Below are positions 13,956 to 32,000 of a stretch of 32,000 bases of DNA, in pieces (the stretch's first letter is position 1; each line of letters starts with the position of its first letter). The stretch is from the NCBI GenBank assembly GCA_041661045.1, contig JBAZVE010000001.1, positions 600,001 through 632,000 on the forward strand, written 5' to 3'. Origin of the DNA: Candidatus Saccharimonadota bacterium. GTDB taxonomy: Bacteria; Patescibacteriota; Gracilibacteria; UBA1369; 2-02-FULL-48-14. Both the position numbers and the translations under genes were made by a program. The notes below the pieces were generated by a model that had not been told where the DNA came from, did no database searches, and worked only from the letters and a program-made list of their open reading frames with translations.

Positions 13956-16007
13956 ATGAGTTTACTTCGCACCTTAATCTTGAGTACTTTTGTGCTCAGT
14001 ATCCTTGCCCTTCCTGTAGGGGCTTCTGAGTTTGATACCGATGAGGATGGTATTTTGGATGAAGATGAAATGTTTTATGGTTTCGACATTTTAAATCCCG
14101 ATGAAAACAGCAACGGTATTTTGGATGGTTTGGATGACTACGATGGAGACGGACTTAGCACTCAAGATGAAATTTATGTTTATGGTACTTATCCCACCTT
14201 TTCTGATACGGATGGAGACGGACGAAGCGATGGGGAAGAGGTGACCGCTGGTACCGATCCTCTTGTGGCTGAAGTGGCTGATATGACGATCACTGCTATT
14301 TCTACCGTTCTTTTGGGTGGAAATGAGATTTTGGCATACACCGCGGGGAATGCCGGTAACCTTTCTGTGGATTACACTTTGGAGTCCGAAGCTTCCACGC
14401 AAGTGTTTGTGGATTATGTTGAGGGAGATGGAAGCTACAGCGCTCTTTATACTTATGACTGGAACATTGAAATGGGTGCCGGGACTTGGACCGGAGCACT
14501 TTTCTCCGCTGCTGGAAGTGAGGAGATTGCAACCGGAGTTGAGCTTACGCCCGGAGATCACATCATCATGGTGTGTATTGATGCGGCAGTGAATCACGGA
14601 GAGAGTGAAGGGGGGCTCGCAAACTGTTTGACTGATACGGTTACCATTCCTTTTCCTTCTCCGGATCTTATTGTGAGCCAAGTGGCCTTTGATACCACTG
14701 ACAATAGTATCGACTTTGTGGTGCGAAACATTGGAGAAGATACCGTTAGCCTAGATGAAGTTCCTGTCCTTAATTTTACTTTTGATTTCTTGAATGCAGA
14801 CTTTTCCACTGCATCTTCTTTGGATTATACGATCGATGACTTTGGAACGGGATACCGAACTCCTCTCGGAGCGACTACGGTGACTTCTGGTCCAAGTGAT
14901 GGAGAATTCATCAGCTGTACTCTTTATGTATTGGCTACAGTGGACAGCACTTTGCTTGTGACGGAGTCTGATGAAAGCAACAACACTTACTCAACGGTTT
15001 TGGACCTTTGTCCCGGCGATGGAGAAGTGGTGAATGGATTCACCGTTGAGGCCGGACCTGATCAGGGGATTGGGCTTGGAGGCACATTTAATCTTGTGGA
15101 TGCCTACGCGGAAAATGCTGTTTCTTTGACCTCTACCAGCATCAACTGGGGGGATGGATCTGCCTTGGAATCTGCCGTTGAAACAGTGAGTGGAGACCGT
15201 ATTTATTTGGGTGGCAGCCACTATTACACCTATCTCGAAACTTTTACCGTTACGGTTTGTGCCAATGACGGCAGTGAAGAAGTGTGTGACTCTTTTAAAC
15301 TTTCTGTAAGTGGAACTTCCAGTGGTGATGGAGGTTCTAGTGGTGGATCTTCCGGTGGTTCCAGTGGTGGTTCCTCCAGTGAATCAGATCAGGATGTTGA
15401 TTTGACCGAAGAAACTGAAGAAACTGTTGAGGAAGATCAAGTGGTGGACCTGAGCTCTGATGACGATGTTGTGAATTGTGACGCTATGGCATTTGAAGAT
15501 ATCAGTGAGGAGGATTCCTTCTATACTGCTGTTTGTGAAATGTGGGCGGCTGATGTCCTTCACGGAAAGACAGATGCCGTATTTGATGCCGAAGACGATA
15601 TTCGTCGAGATGAAGCGTCCAAGATCTTTACTCGTTTGTTTGGATATGTGGAAGAGGCTTATGAAGAAACTCCTGCGGTAGAAGAAAGCTCCTTTGTCGA
15701 TGTAGAAGCTACGGATCCTTTGGCTTACTATGTGGAATTGGCGGTGGAAGAAAGTATTATGGATGCCGATACCGATTCGTTCAGTGTTGATTTTGTTGAG
15801 TCAGAAGCAGAAGGTTATGTGGAAGTGATTTCTCAGTCCAGCTTTAGACCCAAGGATTCCATGACAGCTTTGGAAATTGCCGAAAGCTTGGAAATGCTTT
15901 TGGGAGACAATGAAGCTGGAGAATCGTTGGATGCGGATGGATATGAAGTGGAAGACACCATGAGCCGCGGAAACTTTGTGGAGTTCCTTTATAATCTTTT
16001 GGACTAA
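13956..16007 (+). CDS. Secreted, highly acidic mosaic surface protein (TSP3-type Ca-binding repeats, CARDB/PKD-like beta domains, Gly-Ser linker, SLH-like C-terminus)
   Basis: 683 aa. Signal peptide MSLLRTLILSTFVLSILALPVGASE. D-x-D-x-D-G-x-x-D repeats (DTDEDGILDEDE, DYDGDGLSTQDE, DTDGDGRSDGEEVTAGTDPL). PDLIVSQVAFDTTDNSIDFVVRNIGEDTV is CARDB-like. FTVEAGPDQ...INWGDGS...FTVTVCANDG is PKD-like. SSGDGGSSGGSSGGSSGGSSS is a linker. The C-terminal FEDIS..FYTAV..L.GKTD..F.....IRRDEASKIFTRL is SLH-like. All domain calls are by eye. Confidence 0.7.
   Translation: MSLLRTLILSTFVLSILALPVGASEFDTDEDGILDEDEMFYGFDILNPDENSNGILDGLDDYDGDGLSTQDEIYVYGTYPTFSDTDGDGRSDGEEVTAGTDPLVAEVADMTITAISTVLLGGNEILAYTAGNAGNLSVDYTLESEASTQVFVDYVEGDGSYSALYTYDWNIEMGAGTWTGALFSAAGSEEIATGVELTPGDHIIMVCIDAAVNHGESEGGLANCLTDTVTIPFPSPDLIVSQVAFDTTDNSIDFVVRNIGEDTVSLDEVPVLNFTFDFLNADFSTASSLDYTIDDFGTGYRTPLGATTVTSGPSDGEFISCTLYVLATVDSTLLVTESDESNNTYSTVLDLCPGDGEVVNGFTVEAGPDQGIGLGGTFNLVDAYAENAVSLTSTSINWGDGSALESAVETVSGDRIYLGGSHYYTYLETFTVTVCANDGSEEVCDSFKLSVSGTSSGDGGSSGGSSGGSSGGSSSESDQDVDLTEETEETVEEDQVVDLSSDDDVVNCDAMAFEDISEEDSFYTAVCEMWAADVLHGKTDAVFDAEDDIRRDEASKIFTRLFGYVEEAYEETPAVEESSFVDVEATDPLAYYVELAVEESIMDADTDSFSVDFVESEAEGYVEVISQSSFRPKDSMTALEIAESLEMLLGDNEAGESLDADGYEVEDTMSRGNFVEFLYNLLD
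15309..15386 (+). repeat. Short tandem AGT/TCC-GGT-GGT repeats encoding a (S-G-G-S)n linker
   Basis: agtggtggatcttccggtggttccagtggtggttcctccagt. Imperfect 12-nt periodicity inside the surface-protein gene. Confidence 0.6.
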
Positions 16008-16092: not shown

Positions 16093-17055
16093 ATGCTTGG
16101 TGAACCCTTATTCATGGCTGACCTCTCAGTAGAATTCTGCGGTGTGAAGTTCAAGAACCCTATCGTTCTCGCTTCCGGCATTTTAGGTGTTACGGCGGAT
16201 AGCATGGCCCAAGTGGTGCGGAATGGAGCCGGAGGAGTGACGAGCAAGAGTCTTTGGCCTTATGAGCATCAAGGGCACCCGAATCCTGTTATTGTGACCA
16301 CGGAGCATTATATGCTCAATGCGGTGGGTATCCCTGATGCGGGACCTGAAAAAGCCAGGGAGGAAATGGCTCGATTCCGGGAGGTGTGTAAGGCGCCGTT
16401 TATTGCGAATATTGTGGGGGGAGTTATGGAAGATTACAGCGCCATTGCGGCTGAGGTGGCTTCGATGCGGCCGGATATTGTGGAGTTGAATATTTCATGC
16501 CCGAATGTGGAAGATGAATTGGGAAAACCCATGGCGTGCTCCATTGTGAAGTCGGCGGAGGTTACGCGGTTGGTGAGAGCTCAGTTGGATGCCAATGGAG
16601 GAAAAGGGATTCCGTTGGTGGTGAAACTTTCTCCGAATGTAGAAAATATTGTGAGCATTGCACAGAGTGTTTTGGAGGCAGGGGCGGATGGAATTACAGC
16701 GATCAACTCTGTGGGGCCGGGCATGGCCATTGATATTGATTTTGCGCAGCCGATTTTATCGAATCGTGTGGGGGGGCTCACCGGCCCGGCCATCAAGCCT
16801 TTGGCCGTTAAATATGTCTATGACATTTATAAGGCTTCCAAGTGTCCGATCATTGGAACCGGTGGCGTTTCCACGGGAAGAGATGCTATTGAAATGATGA
16901 TGGCGGGAGCTACGCTTGTGGGGGTGGGCAGCGCGGTGTGGCAACGAGGCCAGGGCGTCTTCGGAAAAATTGCAGAAGAAATGAATGAATGGTGTGATGC
17001 AAACGGGGTAAAAAAACTTTCAGACTTAATTGGAAAAGTTCATGCAAATCATTAA
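16093..17055 (+). CDS. pyrD: Dihydroorotate dehydrogenase class 1B, catalytic subunit
   Basis: 320 aa. FKNPIVLASG, NISCPNV (Cys base), GVGPGMAID...GGLTGPAIKP, IGTGGV...GATLVGVGSA. Immediately followed by pyrK. An alternative start is the ATG at 16114 (MADLSVEF...). Confidence 0.93.
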   Translation: MLGEPLFMADLSVEFCGVKFKNPIVLASGILGVTADSMAQVVRNGAGGVTSKSLWPYEHQGHPNPVIVTTEHYMLNAVGIPDAGPEKAREEMARFREVCKAPFIANIVGGVMEDYSAIAAEVASMRPDIVELNISCPNVEDELGKPMACSIVKSAEVTRLVRAQLDANGGKGIPLVVKLSPNVENIVSIAQSVLEAGADGITAINSVGPGMAIDIDFAQPILSNRVGGLTGPAIKPLAVKYVYDIYKASKCPIIGTGGVSTGRDAIEMMMAGATLVGVGSAVWQRGQGVFGKIAEEMNEWCDANGVKKLSDLIGKVHANH

Positions 17056-17854
17056 TACCATGCCCAAAGCAATGACGATAAAAGAGATCGTTCAGGAGAC
17101 TGAACAGGTTAAGACTTTTGTTTTGGATGGAAGCATTGGGGCCAAGCCCGGGCAATTTGTGAATGTGTGGATTCCACGACTCGATGAAAAACCTTTTTCC
17201 GTGGCTATGGATACTGGCCTGGAATTGCATCTTTCCATCGCGGCGGTTGGGCCTTTTTCGAATGCCATGCATGAACTTAAGGTGGGTGATAAAGTTGGAG
17301 TGCGTGGACCTTTTGGAACCCAGTTTACTTGTGAAAAAGGCCAGCATCTTGCTTTTTTGGCCGGGGGATATGGCGCCGCGCCGCTCTACTTTTTTGCGCA
17401 TCAAGCGGTGGCCAATGCCTGTACGGTAGAATTTATTGTGGGGGCGCGGCGCAAGGATCTGCTGCTCTTCACCGATCGCATCTCAAAACTCAAGGGCGTG
17501 CGACTGCACACCGCCACCAATGACGGCAGTGATGGTTACAGCGGCTTCAATACTGATGTTTTGAAGAAAATTTTGGGGGAGGAGAAAATAGATTGTGTGT
17601 ATACCGTGGGGCCGGAGATCATGATGCTCAAAGGAATGCAAATGGCGGAAGAACTCGGCATTGATGCTCAAATTTCCGTTGAACGGTATATGAAATGCGG
17701 TTTTGGTGTTTGTGGGAACTGTTGTGTGGATGGACTCGGAGTTCCCAGCTGTATTGAGGGCCCCGTGATGCCTTTGGAAAAAGTAAAACAACTCAAGGAT
17801 TTTGGGAATTATCACCGTGACAAACTTGGCAAAAAACAATATTACAATACCTAA
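17042..17854 (+). CDS. pyrK: Dihydroorotate dehydrogenase class 1B electron-transfer subunit (FAD / 2Fe-2S)
   Basis: Ferredoxin-reductase-like fold (GQFVNVWIP...KPFS, LAGGYGAAPL). C-terminal cluster motif CGFGVCGNCC...SC. The start is uncertain: the ORF track uses TTG at 17030, and in-frame ATGs occur at 17042, 17060 and 17072. Confidence 0.88.
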   Translation: MQIINTMPKAMTIKEIVQETEQVKTFVLDGSIGAKPGQFVNVWIPRLDEKPFSVAMDTGLELHLSIAAVGPFSNAMHELKVGDKVGVRGPFGTQFTCEKGQHLAFLAGGYGAAPLYFFAHQAVANACTVEFIVGARRKDLLLFTDRISKLKGVRLHTATNDGSDGYSGFNTDVLKKILGEEKIDCVYTVGPEIMMLKGMQMAEELGIDAQISVERYMKCGFGVCGNCCVDGLGVPSCIEGPVMPLEKVKQLKDFGNYHRDKLGKKQYYNT

Positions 17855-26072: not shown

Positions 26073-26687
26073 TTACTTAGAATAGTACTCAACAATGAGT
26101 TGAGTTTCAATCAGTTGATCGAGGTCTCCGTCTTCTGGGAGAGAGGCCACTTCAACTCTAAGGGCTTTCTGATCAGATTTTAGCCAGCGGGCGTGATCGA
26201 AATCTTTATCCTCTTTAACCGCGATGAAGAGAGGACTTTCTTTGAGACGGGGGCGCACTTCAATCACATCATTTTCACGAACTTGAATGGAAGGGATGCT
26301 GACGCGAGTTCCATTGAGGGTGAAGATACCGTGATTCACCATTTGACGAGCCTGGGCACGAGTTTTTGCAAATCCACCTCGGTACACCACATTGTCCATG
26401 CGTTTCTCGATTGATTTCAAAAGTTCCGTGCCTGTAGCTCCTTTGCGAGAAGCGGCTTTGAGATAGTAGTTTCGAAGTTGTTTCTCGGTGAGACCATACA
26501 TGAGACGAAGCTTCTGCTTTTCAAGAAGTTGTTTCTTGTATTCGGAAGCCTTTCCGGCTCGGGCAGCTCCGTGCATACCGGGGCCATGTGGGCGCTTCTC
26601 CAAGAGTTTAGCCATCTTCGTGGTTCCGAAGATATCTACTCCGAAGCGTCGTACTAAGCGGCCTTTGGGTCCAGTGTATCGTGACAT
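26073..26687 (-). CDS. rpsD: 30S ribosomal protein S4
   Basis: 204 aa. MSRYTGPKGRLVRRFG...EKQKLRLMYG..EKQ.RNY...RMDNVVYR.GFA.TR.QARQ.V.HG. Confidence 0.97.
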   Translation of the reverse strand: MSRYTGPKGRLVRRFGVDIFGTTKMAKLLEKRPHGPGMHGAARAGKASEYKKQLLEKQKLRLMYGLTEKQLRNYYLKAASRKGATGTELLKSIEKRMDNVVYRGGFAKTRAQARQMVNHGIFTLNGTRVSIPSIQVRENDVIEVRPRLKESPLFIAVKEDKDFDHARWLKSDQKALRVEVASLPEDGDLDQLIETQLIVEYYSK

Positions 26688-26707
26688 TTTATTCTAGTTA
26701 GATAAGA

Positions 26708-27175
26708 TTATACTCTTCGAGTGCGAGGTTGTCGGCACCCGTTGTGAGGGATAGGAGTGGTATCGATGATGCGAGTGATGGCAATTCCTTGAGCAATGAG
26801 TCCACGGAGCGCTTGTTCGCGACCATGTCCAACCCCTTTTACAAAGATGTCCGCTTTCTCGAATCCGTAAGCTTTCGCCTTCTCAGCAGCGTTCTCTGCC
26901 GCCATTTGAGCGGCGAAAGGCGTTGCCTTCTTGGATCCTTTGAATCCGCAGGTTCCGGAAGTGGACCAGGCTATAACAGCTCCATCGGGGTCTGTAATCG
27001 TGATGATGGTGTTGTTGAAGCCTGCATTCACAAACACTTTTCCGGAAGTCACTGTTTTTTTCTTGCTTCGGCGAACGGCCTTTTTCTCTTCAGCAGCGCC
27101 TTCTACAGCGGCTGTACCCTCCGCAACAGCAGCGGGGGCAAGTTCCTTTTCGGGTTTTTTAGTCTCTTCGGCCAT
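26708..27175 (-). CDS. rpsK: 30S ribosomal protein S11 with an A/E-rich N-terminal extension
   Basis: 155 aa. Core is GKVFVNAGFNNTIITITDPDG...GFKGSKKATPFAAQ...V.VKG.G.GRE.A.R. Preceded by about 26 extra residues, MAEETKKPEKELAPAAVAEGTAAVEGAAEE. Confidence 0.95.
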   Translation of the reverse strand: MAEETKKPEKELAPAAVAEGTAAVEGAAEEKKAVRRSKKKTVTSGKVFVNAGFNNTIITITDPDGAVIAWSTSGTCGFKGSKKATPFAAQMAAENAAEKAKAYGFEKADIFVKGVGHGREQALRGLIAQGIAITRIIDTTPIPHNGCRQPRTRRV

Positions 27176-27191
27176 AGGTCAAAAAAATTAA

Positions 27192-27572
27192 TTAAGTTTT
27201 ACTTTCTTTTACACGGCCACTTCCCATGGTCATACGGCGACCGCGTTTGGTTCGCGCGTTGGTCTTGGTGCGTTGTCCACGGGCAGGGAGGCGCTTCTTG
27301 TGACGGTATCCTCGATAAGAGGAAATGTCTTGAAGTCGTTTGACATCCATTTGAACCTTTCGTCGTAAATCTCCTTCAGTTCGAAGCTTGGTGAGTGCAT
27401 CACGGAGCTTGGCCAGTTCGTCTTCAGTCAGATCTTTAATCTTTGTGTCTAGAGAAATGTTCAACTCGTTCAATATTGTTTTAGACAAGTTTCGTCCAAC
27501 GCCATAGATGTAGGTGAGACCTACTTCAACGCGTTTTTCCATTGGCAGTTGTACTCCAGCGAGACGGACCAT
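27192..27572 (-). CDS. rpsM: 30S ribosomal protein S13
   Basis: 126 aa. MVRLAGVQLP..KRVEVGLTYIYGVG...YRG.RH...LP.RGQRT.TNART. Confidence 0.97.
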   Translation of the reverse strand: MVRLAGVQLPMEKRVEVGLTYIYGVGRNLSKTILNELNISLDTKIKDLTEDELAKLRDALTKLRTEGDLRRKVQMDVKRLQDISSYRGYRHKKRLPARGQRTKTNARTKRGRRMTMGSGRVKESKT

Positions 27573-27592
27573 AATATAGAGAGTAGTAAGGG

Positions 27593-27706
27593 TTAACCTT
27601 GTCTTTGCTTGTGCTTAGGGTTGTCGCAGATGATGCGAACCACTCGATTGCGACGAATCTTGCGGCATTTTTCACAGATGATTTTTACAGAGGCTCGGAC
27701 TTTCAT
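27593..27706 (-). CDS. rpmJ: 50S ribosomal protein L36
   Basis: Not in the ORF track because it is under 60 aa. Hand translation of the minus strand gives [37 protein letters not shown], a textbook L36. Its ATG overlaps the infA stop as ATGA (27703-27706). Confidence 0.93.
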
Positions 27707-28071
27707 TGTTTTGGAGTTGATTCAGTTGATACTTCAGGGCCTGTTTCTCCGGGGGCTTCAGGACTTGCTTCTGCAGGAACCGCTTCGGGAGCAGCCGGAG
27801 TGGCCGATGGGCCGCCGAGATGCTCGGGTAGGGGTTGCCCCTTTTTATGTCGGAAAACAATACGTCCCTTATAGAGATCGTAAGGCGTAAGCTCGACGGT
27901 GACCGCATCTCCGGGAATGATTCGAATATAGTTTATTCGCATCTTTCCTGAGAGGTGACAAAGCACTTCGTGGTCAGTCGGGTAAGCCGGGTCATCCAGT
28001 CTTACTTGGAAGGTTGCGTTGGGTAGACATTCTACCACAATCCCCTTCACTTGGATGACTTGTTTTGTCAT
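27703..28071 (-). CDS. infA: Translation initiation factor IF-1 with a 44-aa P/A/E-rich C-terminal tail
   Basis: From the ATG at 28071: [25 protein letters not shown]...[39 protein letters not shown] (S1-like IF-1 core, 78 aa). This is followed by [44 protein letters not shown]. The ORF-track start at 28215 is rejected because it would cover the promoter region and is non-conserved. Confidence 0.9.
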
Positions 28072-28094
28072 TAATTTAAGGCAAAAGCAGGGGG

Positions 28095-28123
28095 ATTCTA
28101 CACGGCGAATATGACAAATGCAA
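28095..28123 (-). promoter_or_regulatory. Sigma70-type promoter candidate for infA-rpmJ-rpsM...
   Basis: On the minus strand: TTGCAT (28123-28118), 17-nt spacer, TAGAAT (28100-28095). The infA ATG is 24 nt downstream of the -10 box. Confidence 0.5.
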
Positions 28124-28176
28124 GCCAATTTTGAAAGGCTACTTAAAATCTGCATTTCTTTTGGAAGGGGACCGAG

Positions 28177-28182
28177 TATAAT
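28177..28182 (+). promoter_or_regulatory. Consensus -10 hexamer TATAAT upstream of the TM repeat-protein gene (no convincing -35)
   Basis: Perfect TATAAT ending 9 nt before the ATG at 28192. If used, the transcript would be leaderless or nearly so. Hexamers at 16-18 nt spacing (TTTCTT/ATTTCT) are poor -35 matches. Confidence 0.3.
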
Positions 28183-28191
28183 TTGCCTACT

Positions 28192-29496
28192 ATGGCTCAA
28201 TCGAAGAAGCAGCAAAAACCGGCACAGAAACTAGTAAAACTGGTGACGACGCAACGCGTTCAGGCGGTTTTGCTGCTTGTGCTGGGGCTTTTGCTCTTGA
28301 ATCAGACGGTTCAGTTTTACAAACTTAAGGATGAAATTGCGTTTGTGGAGAGGCTCCGGGCGCAGAACAGTGCAGTGCTTCAGGATCTGGACCAAAGTAA
28401 ACAATATTTGAGTAGTTTTGGAGAAGATTTGAACGGGATTCGACAGTTTTTACTCTTGCCCACAAAGCCTTATCACTTTGGAGATTTTGGGGGAGAGGAG
28501 GTGGAGCTTGCGGAAGAGGGAGAGGATTTGACCACGGAGCTCTTCACTTATATTGAAAAGCTGGGGACTTATGAGCAAAATCAGATTCGTTACAATGAGA
28601 ATTTGGCTGCTTTCCAAACCGGGTTGGGGGAGCCGTACTGGGCTGAAAAGGGCTTGAGTGTGGACAAGGCCGGACAGGCGGGCACGGAGGCCATGGTGTT
28701 TAGCTTTAAAGATTCTGCGATGGGAGGGGTGGAACTGTTTGCGGTGCATTTGGGTTACAATGGATTCTTTAAAATAGAGGCTTTGGATGAAGGGTTTAGC
28801 TTGAGTGAACGAGAAGACAGCGCGCAAGTGCTTTCTGAACTCAAGAGTTTGGTGGAGAGTGACTTGGAAGGTTTGAGGGTTCAGGTGGCAGATTTACAGG
28901 AAGCACGAGCCGAGATGGCCGCCCTGGTGGCTGCGGCTCCCGTGCAGGCAGTTTTGAATGAGCGGGGACTCAAGGTTTCCGCGGAGCTGAGCTCCTCCAA
29001 TAAAATTTATTATGAATTCAAGAGCACGGAGAGTGAGCCTTTGGCGGCCCTTTTTGTAGAAAAAGGGGACAGCGACTTGGTGTTGAATGTAAAGGCTCCT
29101 ATTGAACCTTATGAGGGGGAAATTGCTTTGACTGAGGACGCGGAGGCGGTGCTGGTGGATGTCCTGCAGAATGGAGTGGACAGCCGAAGCTCTTTGCAAA
29201 AACGGGTGGATGAACAGGAAGCTGAGATGGAATCTGTTTTTGAGGATCGGGCCTTTAAGGCCGTTTTGGGAGAATTGGAACTTCAGTTTGGGCCTAAAAC
29301 AGAGACCGAGACTCGCATTTCTTACCCTTTGATTCGGGAGGATGGACAGGTTTTACGGATTATCTTTATAGACAAGACCAGTGGGGAAGTGAAAGTGGAA
29401 ATGCCCACCGGAACAGACACTCACACGCTTTCGATGGCGATAAGCCTCATTGATCTGACGGGTAAAAAAAAACTTTCGACCCCTCCGTTATCCTGA
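28192..29496 (+). CDS. Membrane-anchored protein with coiled-coil and about three divergent ~90-aa repeats; possibly the N-terminal part of the LCP gene
   Basis: Basic N-terminus followed by one TM helix ([14 protein letters not shown]). Three segments share the pattern helix-(E/G)(K/R/L)GL.V...F.FK...hydrophobic beta stretches. Ends 8 codons after an A9 run. The ORF-track start is TTG at 28183; I prefer the ATG at 28192. Confidence 0.65.
29464..29472 (+). repeat. A9 homopolymer (GGT AAA AAA AAA) at the junction of two envelope ORFs; potential slippery site or indel hotspot
   Basis: Nine consecutive A. It contains an in-frame A_AAA_AAA heptamer. The -1 frame is open from 29466 into the LCP ORF. 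Confidence 0.9.
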
Positions 29497-29513
29497 GTTC
29501 TTCAGGAGAAATT

Positions 29514-30338
29514 GTGGATGAAGATGGGCATTTTAATGTGCTGATCATGGGGAAACATGGCAGCAATGTGGACACCATGATTTTTACGAATGTGGATGAG
29601 GAAACGCGTGAAATCACTTTGATCAGCATCCCCCGAGATCTCTATTTTAACGGAAGAAAAATCAACAGCGTGTATGCCGAGTATGGCATAGAAGAGCAGG
29701 TGAGTTGGGTGGAAGAAATTGTTGGGCAGCAGATAGATAACTTTATTTTGATCGACATGTATGTGTTTCGAGACATTATTGATTTGATGGGTGGAGTGGA
29801 CATTATACTGGAAGAAGACTTGATTGATCCCACTTACAAAACTTGCGATGTCGGGGTGTGTTCCACTCTGTATTATGAGGCGGGATTGCATCATTTGGAT
29901 GGCACGGCGGCGCTTCGCATTGCTCGGTCCAGGCACAGCACTTCGGATTATTCGCGCGCGGCGCGCCAGCAACTGATTTTAGAGGGGATTAAAGACAAAG
30001 CCATGAACCTGGGCATTGGGGATGCCGCGGCGCTCATGTCTATTTTAAATACTCTCATCGACTCCACGGAAACGGACATCTCGGTGGACAGTGCCTTAAG
30101 GTACTATTTCCGCTACCAAAACTTTGAACTCAATAATGGTAATGTGATCTCCACCGCCAATGTGCTCGATGCCGTGCCGGTTCCGGTGGATTACCTTACT
30201 TCGCATCCCATCCAAACCTGTTTGGATGAGAGTCGTCCGGAAACATGTACACAAACTTATGCCATCGACACTCTTATGCCCATTGATTCGAACTGGGGCC
30301 TGATTAGAGGCTTTGTTCAGCAGCTTTTGGATGAATAG
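29514..30338 (+). CDS. LytR-CpsA-Psr (LCP) family domain protein, lacking its own membrane anchor as called
   Basis: 274 aa from the GTG at 29514. FNVLIMGKHGSNVDTMIFTNVD...ITLISIPRDLY...KINSVYAEYG...DNFILIDMYVFRDIIDLMGGVDI...LDGTAALRIARSRHSTSDYSRAARQQLIL matches the LCP catalytic-domain blocks. The domain starts at about residue 7, with no signal peptide or TM segment. Confidence 0.85.
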   Translation: MDEDGHFNVLIMGKHGSNVDTMIFTNVDEETREITLISIPRDLYFNGRKINSVYAEYGIEEQVSWVEEIVGQQIDNFILIDMYVFRDIIDLMGGVDIILEEDLIDPTYKTCDVGVCSTLYYEAGLHHLDGTAALRIARSRHSTSDYSRAARQQLILEGIKDKAMNLGIGDAAALMSILNTLIDSTETDISVDSALRYYFRYQNFELNNGNVISTANVLDAVPVPVDYLTSHPIQTCLDESRPETCTQTYAIDTLMPIDSNWGLIRGFVQQLLDE

Positions 30339-30356
30339 GTGAGGGCGAGTCTACTT

Positions 30357-31220
30357 TTACAATTTTGTGCGATTCTCATATGCCGCCAGTATATCTGTGC
30401 AATCGGGGCTGTTGACGGTGATGAGATAAAAAAGATTTTCTCCTCGCAAAAGGATAGTGCTCCCACCGGATTGGATTTTTGTGTAGACCTTGGGTCGAAT
30501 ATTGTTTTTCAGAAAGGCATACCACTCTTTTGGAGCGGAGCTTTGTTGTTTTAGGTTGGGAGCAAATTCGTACCGCAAATACGCTTTTGCTTCTTGAAAG
30601 TTTAGAAGTCTCATTTCGATGATCTCATCAAAACTTACATGAATGGTGAATTTTCTATCTGGGTGGGAGAGGTCTTTGTCGGTAAAAATGAAGTTTATGC
30701 CTGTAGGATCCAGTTCGTATTTGGGCAATAAAATCTGTCCCCATTTTTTGAGTTTGTTTAGGATGGGGTCCATCATCCTGCGCAAAATGGCGATATATAC
30801 GCCATAGGTGGCGATTTGAATGTAGAACTCCCGATTTAGGCTAAAGTCCTTTTCGTACTTTAAAATGAAATAACTGATGCCCACCATGATGGTGGATAAG
30901 AATATTAAACTTAGAATGGTCCCCAAGAAATTCTTTACGAGAAGAAAATGATTGAGACCTTTCCCAAAACTTTGGAACTTGTCTTGAGCTTGTGTTTCGT
31001 TCCAGCTCTCCGTTCGGTAGACAGTCTGTTTCATCAGGGAATATCCATTCTCCATAAAGGTACAGAAAAAGAGTGGGACAATAATGGCTGTCATTGGAGT
31101 GAACTGTGAGCCGGAGGACAGGGAAAGGAGCAAACAGATGAATCCAAAGAGCATTCCTCCAGAAAATAAGATCAGTCCGCTTAACCTTGTTTTGAGCTTG
31201 GAAAGTTTGTGAGTGAACAT
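30357..31220 (-). CDS. Hypothetical integral membrane protein (about 4 TM helices plus a ~135-aa soluble C-terminal domain)
   Basis: 287 aa. Hydrophobic helices at LSGLILFSGGMLFGFICLLLSL, MTAIIVPLFFCTF, FLGTILSLIFLSTIMVGISYFIL and FYIQIATYGVYIAIL. The C-terminal domain has no motif I recognise. AT-richer than its neighbours in sampled blocks. Confidence 0.6.
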   Translation of the reverse strand: MFTHKLSKLKTRLSGLILFSGGMLFGFICLLLSLSSGSQFTPMTAIIVPLFFCTFMENGYSLMKQTVYRTESWNETQAQDKFQSFGKGLNHFLLVKNFLGTILSLIFLSTIMVGISYFILKYEKDFSLNREFYIQIATYGVYIAILRRMMDPILNKLKKWGQILLPKYELDPTGINFIFTDKDLSHPDRKFTIHVSFDEIIEMRLLNFQEAKAYLRYEFAPNLKQQSSAPKEWYAFLKNNIRPKVYTKIQSGGSTILLRGENLFYLITVNSPDCTDILAAYENRTKL

Positions 31221-31232
31221 AGGCTGTTGAGC

Positions 31233-32000
31233 TTATTGGCGTTTCTCTCCTTCCCGCAGAGTTAAGATTTCGTTGCCACGGTCGGTGATAAGGAGGGTAT
31301 GTTCGTGTTGAATGGCGAGGGAGCCATCTTCGGTGATGATGGTCCAGTCGTCGTCGAGCGTTTGAATTTCGGGACGGCCCATGGCAATGATGGGTTCGAT
31401 GGCGATGCACATACCGGGAACCAATTCTTCTCCTTCTCCGGGTTCCCCATAGTTGCAAACGAAGGGAGGCTCGTGCAGACGAGTGCCGATGCCGTGTCCG
31501 GTGAGTTCACGAATGATTGAAAATCCCGCCGCTTCCACAATGGTTTGGATGGCGTGACCGATATCGCCAACATGGTTTCCGGGTTTGGCCTGTGCCACTC
31601 CGCTCCATAAAGCGGTAATACAAGTGTCCACCAGTCGTTTGGCTTCACTGATGGTCTCGTTTCCCACAATGCAGGCCACAGCGGAATCACTGTTCATTCC
31701 ATCAATAATCACTCCGCAGTCGATGGAGAGGATGTCCCCCTTTTGCATGGGGATTTTGTTGGGAATGGTGTGGACCACTTCATCGTTCACCGAAGTACAC
31801 AGAATGTTGGGGTAGCCGTTGTACCCTTTAAAACCCGGTTGTACTTGATATCTTTTGAATAGCTCTTCGGCTTTTCTTTCCAGGTCCATGGTGCTCATTC
31901 CGACTTCTAAAACTTTTTCGAGTTCACTCAAAATCACCGCGAGAGCTTTGCCGGATTCGCGCATCGCACGGATTTGATTTGGTGTTTTTATGCTGACTTT
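31233..32000 (-). CDS. map: Methionine aminopeptidase type I (5' end runs off the window)
   Basis: Metal ligand blocks SIDCGVIIDGMNSDSA, HGIGTRLHE, IAIEP and QHEHTLL. The reading frame stays open upstream of the track's ATG (31964) to the window edge (KVSIKTPNQIRA-MRESG...), matching the usual MAP N-terminus, so the true start lies beyond 32000. Confidence 0.93.
   Translation of the reverse strand, partial: KVSIKTPNQIRAMRESGKALAVILSELEKVLEVGMSTMDLERKAEELFKRYQVQPGFKGYNGYPNILCTSVNDEVVHTIPNKIPMQKGDILSIDCGVIIDGMNSDSAVACIVGNETISEAKRLVDTCITALWSGVAQAKPGNHVGDIGHAIQTIVEAAGFSIIRELTGHGIGTRLHEPPFVCNYGEPGEGEELVPGMCIAIEPIIAMGRPEIQTLDDDWTIITEDGSLAIQHEHTLLITDRGNEILTLREGEKRQ

Follow-up and report, generated by a model that had tools for sequence, protein, structure and literature searches.

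In a 32,000-nucleotide stretch of the genome of Candidatus Saccharimonadota bacterium (assembly GCA_041661045.1, contig JBAZVE010000001.1, positions 600,001 to 632,000; the whole stretch is hereafter called the window), two neighboring open reading frames (ORFs) lying in different frames probably constitute a single gene. The upstream frame, ORF-A, encodes a membrane-anchored repeat protein; the downstream frame encodes an LCP domain of the glycopolymer transferase type and, as called, no anchor. We propose that the two halves carry a fixed offset of one nucleotide and are united at a conserved recoding site, a run of nine adenines (A9) near the end of ORF-A, by programmed slippage.

The junction reads GGT AAA AAA AAA CTT TCG ACC CCT CCG TTA TCC TGA in the 0 frame of ORF-A (29461-29496). 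Its nine adenines, at 29464-29472, make up three AAA lysine codons in this frame, form the longest homopolymer of the window and contain the slippery heptamer A_AAA_AAA (29466-29472) in the correct 0-frame phase. The -1 frame is closed by a TAA at 29463-29465 and open from 29466, its first start codon being the one at 29514; because this stop lies upstream and the 0-frame TGA downstream, a change of frame is confined to the 31 nt from 29466 to 29496, and A9 falls inside that interval. The coordinates of the run and of both ORFs, together with the open -1 frame, had been put forward in an earlier reading of this DNA (the original prediction) and were all confirmed in the sequence. One extra A, or one -1 slip, gives the junction GKKKTFDPS and a fused product of 715 aa from the ATG at 28192, or 718 aa from the TTG at 28183. 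The predicted fusion of about 715 aa therefore stands, with three lysines at its junction and not the four first given, and we propose join(28192..29472,29472..30338), of 715 aa, as the real coding sequence. A lone A9 in 32 kb is unremarkable in itself, as dinucleotide shuffles lead one to expect 4.5 per 32 kb and contain at least one in 93% of cases; the window is, if anything, depleted in such runs. The departure from chance lies elsewhere: the run falls within the 31-nt shift window, and it is conserved in orthologues. Reassignment of UGA (genetic code 25, as in Gracilibacteria) was rejected as an explanation of the arrangement, given that the LCP domain lies in another frame and that the 0-frame stop is TAG or TAA in the related loci L004, L005, L008, L020 and L023.

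The DNA of relatives was drawn from GTDB genomes, JGI and ENA metagenomes, NCBI and Logan assemblies, and individual loci are given L numbers where they have to be told apart. Searches with the fused model returned two classes of protein. The first consists of fused proteins of approximately 640-756 aa that contain PF03816, share 32-46% identity with the query and align with it through the junction, as much as 96% of the query being taken in by a single local alignment. The earlier claim that a -1 shift or a one-nucleotide insertion would join the anchored repeat protein to the anchor-less LCP domain is borne out by these fused homologues of around 700 aa. The second class comprises 25 clusters of 406-443 aa that lack the LCP domain and are 39-61% identical to ORF-A. 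These are the clusters nearest to ORF-A; all 25 stop a few codons past KKK, at exactly 8 codons in 23 of them, and none is fused. The short proteins end in (G/S/A)KKK-L-S-T-P-x-x-S and a stop, and in the same columns the fused proteins read KK(K)-T-L-x-L-P; judged from this alignment, KKKLSTP is KKKTFDP or KKKTLxxP read one base out of frame.

The 13 related -1-type split loci agree at the DNA level: each has an unbroken A-run at the junction, followed by the LCP domain in the -1 frame. The run is (GGT/AGT/CTC)-A9 in 11 of them, GC-A10 in L019 (the preceding codon being GCA) and AGT-A10 in L021, the last two also sharing the -1 frame state. The near-identical strains represented by L004, L008 and L009, which come from separate samples, have A9 in every case, and L022 lies on a 1.34-Mb contig with a chromosome-type accession (CP064962.1). 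When the ORF-A part is placed on a neighbor-joining tree, the 25 split sequences group as a single clade of Peregrinibacteria inside a grade of fused sequences. Moreover, fused genes (L011 and L013) and split genes (L018, L019, L022 and the window) occupy one and the same position, antisense between infA/rpsM and map, and this shared position identifies them as orthologues. The wider setting is a secY-adk-map / infA-rpmJ-rpsM-rpsK-rpsD-rpoA cluster (26073-31964 in the window), within which the gene encoding anchor, repeats and LCP domain is antisense; the same placement is held in L011, L013, L018, L019 and L022. A scan of viral contigs found nothing. Most Peregrinibacteria encode anchor, repeats and LCP domain in a single frame. 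One distant relative, L020, departs from both arrangements, with A11 at the junction (2482-2492) and the LCP domain in the +1 frame, such that A10 would be in frame; this +1-type state was seen in L020 only and may reflect a recent indel, an error or one more state that depends on slippage.

These comparisons bear directly on the simplest explanation of the frame offset, namely that a homopolymer error in sequencing or assembly has broken a real A10 and a single ORF. Homopolymers are the classic sites of indel errors, but the same out-of-frame state recurs in 13 other loci that were sequenced and assembled independently (separate projects, assemblers and platforms), as well as in the 25 protein clusters, and the distribution of the split state is phylogenetically coherent. 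We consider an error very improbable, and this option of the original prediction is in practice excluded by the out-of-frame run in every related -1-type split locus read. The original prediction had also looked to orthologues for consistently separate genes accompanied by an independently anchored LCP protein and a run that is not conserved. The clade does consistently show two ORFs; the A-run is nonetheless conserved, and no independently anchored LCP protein accompanies it.

Conservation of the run extends to positions that the protein does not constrain. Across the window and 13 related split loci (L020 included), the junction lysine codons are AAA in 42 of 42 cases, as compared with 202 AAA and 170 AAG (54% AAA) among the lysines elsewhere in the same ORF-A genes. 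Only 15 of the 32 other lysine runs in these genes are pure AAA, and none of the four with three or more lysines is. The synonymous divergence between non-identical pairs of split lineages (pS 0.55-0.81) amounts to saturation, so that the lineages are nearly independent of one another at synonymous sites. Taken together, these sequences indicate that the A-run is under selection as a homopolymer, conserved at synonymous sites clade-wide. Unbroken in-frame runs are also present in AT-richer fused genes (A7, A9, A10, A10 and A10), where they are not significant given a codon bias of 74-88% AAA.

A run conserved in this manner might still serve as a contingency tract, in which slipped-strand mispairing during replication would switch the LCP half ON (A10) or OFF (A9) in subpopulations, with assemblies recording an OFF majority. 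Such phase variation would suit a surface-related gene with a homopolymer in its coding region, and the occurrence of A7, A9, A10 and A11 across the wider family demonstrates that indels do arise and become fixed in the DNA. Were the tract to switch freely, however, some lineages should show an ON consensus or a different length; the clade shows neither, its frame state being invariant. The protein clusters include no fused member, the DNA loci are all in one state despite saturated synonymous divergence, and even the near-identical strains from separate samples agree on A9. We therefore regard phase variation as unlikely. The original prediction had offered programmed or phase-variable frameshifting as one option; its programmed part has gained support from conservation at synonymous sites, and its phase-variable part is possible and less likely.

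In the downstream half, PF03816 matches residues 35-179 of the translation starting at 29466 with 108.7 bits (cut-off 24.6), the match extending from position 2 to 148 of a 150-position profile, and TIGR00350 matches with 101.4 bits (cut-off 62.3), the NCBIfam label being LCP glycopolymer transferase. The half is homologous to the solved TagV (6uf3, E 9.5e-17), TagT, TagU, Cps2A and MsrR, and the motifs VDT, SIPRD, RIARSRH and RQQ are visible in it and conserved in the alignment of fused and split forms. LCP enzymes act on the outer face of the membrane. Read from the GTG, however, the LCP half has no hydrophobic segment, signal peptide or transmembrane (TM) helix, and the N-terminal anchor typical of the class is predicted only in the frameshift-fused model and is absent from the GTG ORF. 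The same holds widely among its relatives: the LCP-half search returned 268 at E <= 1e-40. Among the best 120, about 100 ORFs lack an anchor and measure 250-300 aa, and gene calling has put their N-termini at scattered points in the linker (MDLPxSLPEY..., MPESLPSY...). Only about six of these best 120 have a TM segment of their own, and all six or so are paralogues.

It is also conceivable that the gene is genuinely split, the LCP domain being translated alone from the GTG at 29514 or by termination-reinitiation and remaining anchor-less, either cytoplasmic or recruited by ORF-A. The window does offer a GTG preceded by AGGAG, and gene callers report a pair of ORFs throughout the clade. Neither GTG nor AGGAG is conserved. 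The GTG is missing from L005, L018 and L019; the first in-frame start codon of L005 is found only at VMGKHG of the catalytic domain, and the sole start in L018 and L019 is a TTG one to three codons past the run. The AGGAG is replaced by CGGGAG, CAGGGG, CAGGTC, CAGATT or CGGATG in other loci. Nor does this genome use Shine-Dalgarno (SD) sites, as the original prediction had supposed: an SD-like 4-mer precedes 2 of the 32 long ORFs in the window, against a background of 13.7%. No promoter or terminator above chance was found between ORF-A and the LCP ORF. Independent translation would further leave the LCP half with no signal for export to the side of the membrane on which these enzymes act, and gives no reason for an unbroken triple AAA.

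The codons upstream of the GTG point in the same direction. In the 17 nt between the 0-frame stop and the GTG, variability by -1-frame codon position is 0.13/0.10/0.38, a pattern matching that of the LCP body (0.19/0.08/0.42), and the linker aligns with its counterpart in fused homologues, E(L/I)VD..G.F.VL. From its pattern of substitution, this stretch ahead of the GTG thus appears to evolve as -1-frame coding sequence, which again argues against translation from the GTG. A genuinely split gene, an option that the original prediction had left standing, is disfavored by the lack of a conserved start codon or AGGAG, of SD use and of an export signal, and we hold it to be quite improbable. A decaying pseudogene, in which the LCP half would be a dead remnant of a frameshift mutation, might be entertained for a disrupted frame in a reduced genome. 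Yet the LCP ORF is intact in all lineages, with ratios of non-synonymous to synonymous divergence (dN/dS) of 0.05-0.16 between split lineages, as compared with 0.11-0.32 for ORF-A and lower than that of ORF-A in every measurable pair. These ratios indicate that the out-of-frame LCP half is functional, under purifying selection and better conserved than ORF-A, and they leave the pseudogene explanation scarcely credible.

ORF-A supplies what the LCP half lacks. The fused model contains a single hydrophobic segment on a Kyte-Doolittle scan, near residues 26-45, in agreement with the earlier statement that the only TM helix belongs to ORF-A. The N-terminus ahead of this helix is rich in Lys and Arg, which by the positive-inside rule places it in the cytoplasm and the C-terminus outside. 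From its K-rich cytoplasmic N-terminus, ORF-A proceeds through the one TM helix to a long helix and then to three alpha/beta repeats. An internal sequence repeat (aa 234-314 against 338-418, z approximately 4.7) agrees with an AlphaFold2 model of mean pLDDT 82, exceeding 90 across most of residues 120-420, in which a long N-terminal helix (TM segment and stalk) is followed by three units, each a helix on a 3-4-stranded sheet; the three repeats of the original prediction are thereby supported, as far as sequence and model go. No Pfam or NCBIfam family matches ORF-A, and a Foldseek search of the model against the PDB gave nothing at E <= 0.001. The top match, the YpeB C-terminal domain at E 1.7e-3, was too weak for an assignment. 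Fused and split forms alike keep the repeat module, which suggests that it serves this LCP subfamily as an accessory ectodomain. In L002, the KKKK motif of the cytoplasmic N-terminus is encoded by an in-frame A9 (AAG AAA AAA AAA, 2989-2997), and in other loci AAG breaks this run.

As to mechanism, precedent shows what a run of this length can do. Runs of nine A's or T's slip efficiently in bacterial RNA polymerase, as in the dnaX gene of Thermus thermophilus, and A9 matches the length of the 9-10-bp RNA:DNA hybrid (PMC5009743); an A9 cassette in Escherichia coli gave 40% frameshifting (PMC3711429). In tssM1 of Citrobacter rodentium, transcripts of an A11 run contain from 10 to 15 A's, and two variants of the protein are made with neither an SD site nor a structural signal present (PMC4256274). 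Default decoding of the present gene would produce a 434-aa protein anchored in the membrane by its N-in TM helix, with its three alpha/beta repeats on the extracytoplasmic side. In a fraction of events the frame would move to -1 within A9, and the resulting 715-aa protein would use that anchor to hold an LCP glycopolymer-transferase domain outside the membrane. The likeliest route would be realignment of RNA polymerase on the nine A's with addition of one non-templated A. A tandem -1 slip of tRNA-Lys on A_AAA_AAA would give an identical protein and may contribute, and, should tRNA-Lys in these organisms be prone to shifting, it could be the main route; no tRNA gene occurs in the 32-kb window, where the tRNA-Lys repertoire was sought.

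Between the two routes we lean modestly toward the transcriptional one, since no conserved stimulatory RNA structure was found: RNAalifold on 11 junctions gave a consensus energy of -0.38 kcal/mol, which is essentially none. The small hairpin at 29491-29507 has 6 bp and begins 18 nt 3' of the run, a spacing unlike that of a classical frameshift stimulator. It pairs in 80% of cells over 11 sequences with modest covariation, is absent in part of the clade, was not recovered by RNAalifold as a consensus structure and probably does not stimulate frameshifting. As for an upstream SD-like stimulator, the GGT before the run is not conserved in L018 and L019. The A11 and +1 state of L020 also fits transcriptional slippage, for it could not be rescued by a -1 ribosomal slip but could be by a heterogeneous pool of transcripts. 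A further and more tentative reading, which we consider possible and on balance doubtful, is that slippage is a stoichiometry device fixing the ratio of scaffold alone to scaffold plus LCP ligase, both of them needed for attachment of wall glycopolymers, and, jointly with this, that the tract in Peregrinibacteria has flipped the default product between fused A10 and split A9 forms, as in dnaX.

Several considerations weigh against programmed slippage at the run. The KKK(T) peptide motif is itself conserved in 84 of 95 fused homologues, and for this reason only synonymous third positions are informative on selection for a homopolymer. Tract length and frame state have changed in evolution (A7, A9 and A10 fused in-frame; A11 and +1 in L020), from which it follows that the tract can mutate in the DNA itself and that not all of these frame states are open to rescue by a -1 ribosomal shift. 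The N-terminal A9 of L002 shows that such runs are tolerated without obvious function. Finally, we infer from DNA and protein sequence that slippage occurs, and the same applies to its efficiency, to which polymer slips and to the need for both products; the mechanism would depend on the RNA polymerase and tRNA-Lys of uncultivated hosts.

Table 1. Features of the proposed recoded gene, in window coordinates.
Feature	Position	Strand	Remarks
ORF-A, 0-frame product	28192..29496	+	434 aa from ATG; TTG at 28183; ends 8 codons past KKK
Predicted TM helix, the sole one	28258..28317	+	about V26-F45 counted from TTG; Kyte-Doolittle scan of the fused model
-1-frame TAA stop, 5' edge of the shift window	29463..29465	+	
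A9 slippery run, proposed site of RNA-polymerase realignment (+1 A) and/or -1 ribosomal slip	29464..29472	+	
-1-frame linker codons, 5' of the called GTG	29472..29513	+	homologous to the linker of fused proteins
0-frame TGA stop of ORF-A, 3' edge of the shift window	29494..29496	+	
Small hairpin TCCTGA-GTTCT-TCAGGA	29491..29507	+	encloses the 0-frame stop and AGGAG
LCP ORF as called from GTG	29514..30338	+	274 aa, -1 frame; PF03816 at about 29568-30002

Some other features of the window deserve mention. An A7 run at 17010-17016, within GGTAAAAAAACTTTC, has the same local sequence as the LCP site. It was rejected as a second frameshift site: it lies in an ordinary overlap of pyrD (16093-17055) and pyrK (approximately 17030-17854), both of which are complete according to Pfam. 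The 4-mers TAAC, CTAA and TAAT are enriched approximately ten-fold at -25 to -1 of ATG starts (10 of 26, against 3.6%; for example 1527, 3941 and 18512 on the forward strand and 26049 and 26687 on the reverse), an enrichment to which the TAA stop codons of genes lying upstream may contribute. Between the LCP gene and map, and convergent with the former, the reverse strand encodes a hydrophobic protein of 287 aa (30357-31220) that matches no family, the only sub-threshold match being Lit (PF07314, E 0.033). On the forward strand, 13956-16007 encodes 683 aa in which a bacterial TSP3 repeat and, weakly, an SLH domain are matched; the product may be an S-layer or cell-surface protein.

Among characterized systems, tssM1 of C. 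rodentium (Gueguen et al. 2014, PMC4256274) is similar in being an envelope protein with an N-terminal membrane anchor and two length variants per gene, in having an essential extracytoplasmic C-terminal domain that lies out of frame behind a poly-A run just before a stop, and in having neither an SD site nor a structural stimulator. It differs in its A11 run and its type VI secretion family, in that slippage was shown there by mass spectrometry of cDNA and is inferred here, and in its confinement to few enterobacteria, as against a deep clade with saturated synonymous divergence. The tau/gamma arrangement of dnaX, with the A9 of T. thermophilus and the A10 of two-ORF genes (PMC5009743, PMC3711429), likewise has 9-10 A's and two products that share an N-terminus. 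There the long product is in-frame or frameshift-derived according to lineage, and the same reversal of roles is seen here between fused A10 and split A9 forms. DnaX is, however, a cytoplasmic replication protein, and only for dnaX is it established in what ratio the products are made and that both are needed.

Programmed -1 ribosomal frameshifting in E. coli dnaX and insertion sequence elements (A_AAA_AAG, with SD and hairpin) shares with our case a Lys-Lys heptamer in phase and a long product in the -1 frame. It differs in its stimulators, as the present site has no conserved structure 5-9 nt downstream and no conserved SD-like element upstream. In the insect endosymbionts Buchnera and Blochmannia, as cited in PMC5009743, one-nucleotide indels in A-tracts are likewise tolerated by way of heterogeneous transcripts in reduced genomes; these are sporadic, recent indels in many genes, unlike a run in one gene that would be fixed by selection clade-wide. 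With TagT, TagU, TagV, Cps2A and MsrR, the gene shares PF03816 homology and, in the fused model, an N-terminal TM anchor with the catalytic domain outside. In contrast to them, it places a 380-aa module of three repeats, of no detectable family, between anchor and LCP domain, and its catalytic domain is reached only by a change of frame.

None of the papers searched links Peribacteria, the Candidate Phyla Radiation (CPR) or LCP genes to frameshifting or slippage. The mechanism is known in kind; what is new is the gene family, the lineage and how deeply the site is conserved. To our knowledge, few conserved non-mobile bacterial genes depend on homopolymer slippage, namely dnaX, genes of the Shigella type III secretion system and tssM. 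For annotation, the consequence is that well over a hundred clusters of the clade are filed as a hypothetical protein plus an anchor-less LCP family protein, and these pairs are most likely one recoded gene. For the biology of recoding, the locus offers an unusually clean comparative signature, with a run fixed amid saturated synonymous sites in a lineage whose initiation is not led by SD sites. For the biology of the CPR, it suggests that expression of the enzyme that attaches glycopolymers to the wall is throttled or ratio-controlled at the RNA level in these small-genome bacteria. Should the stoichiometry reading prove true, it would be an instance of programmed transcriptional slippage, chromosomal and deeply conserved, that acts on an enzyme of the cell envelope in an uncultivated CPR lineage.

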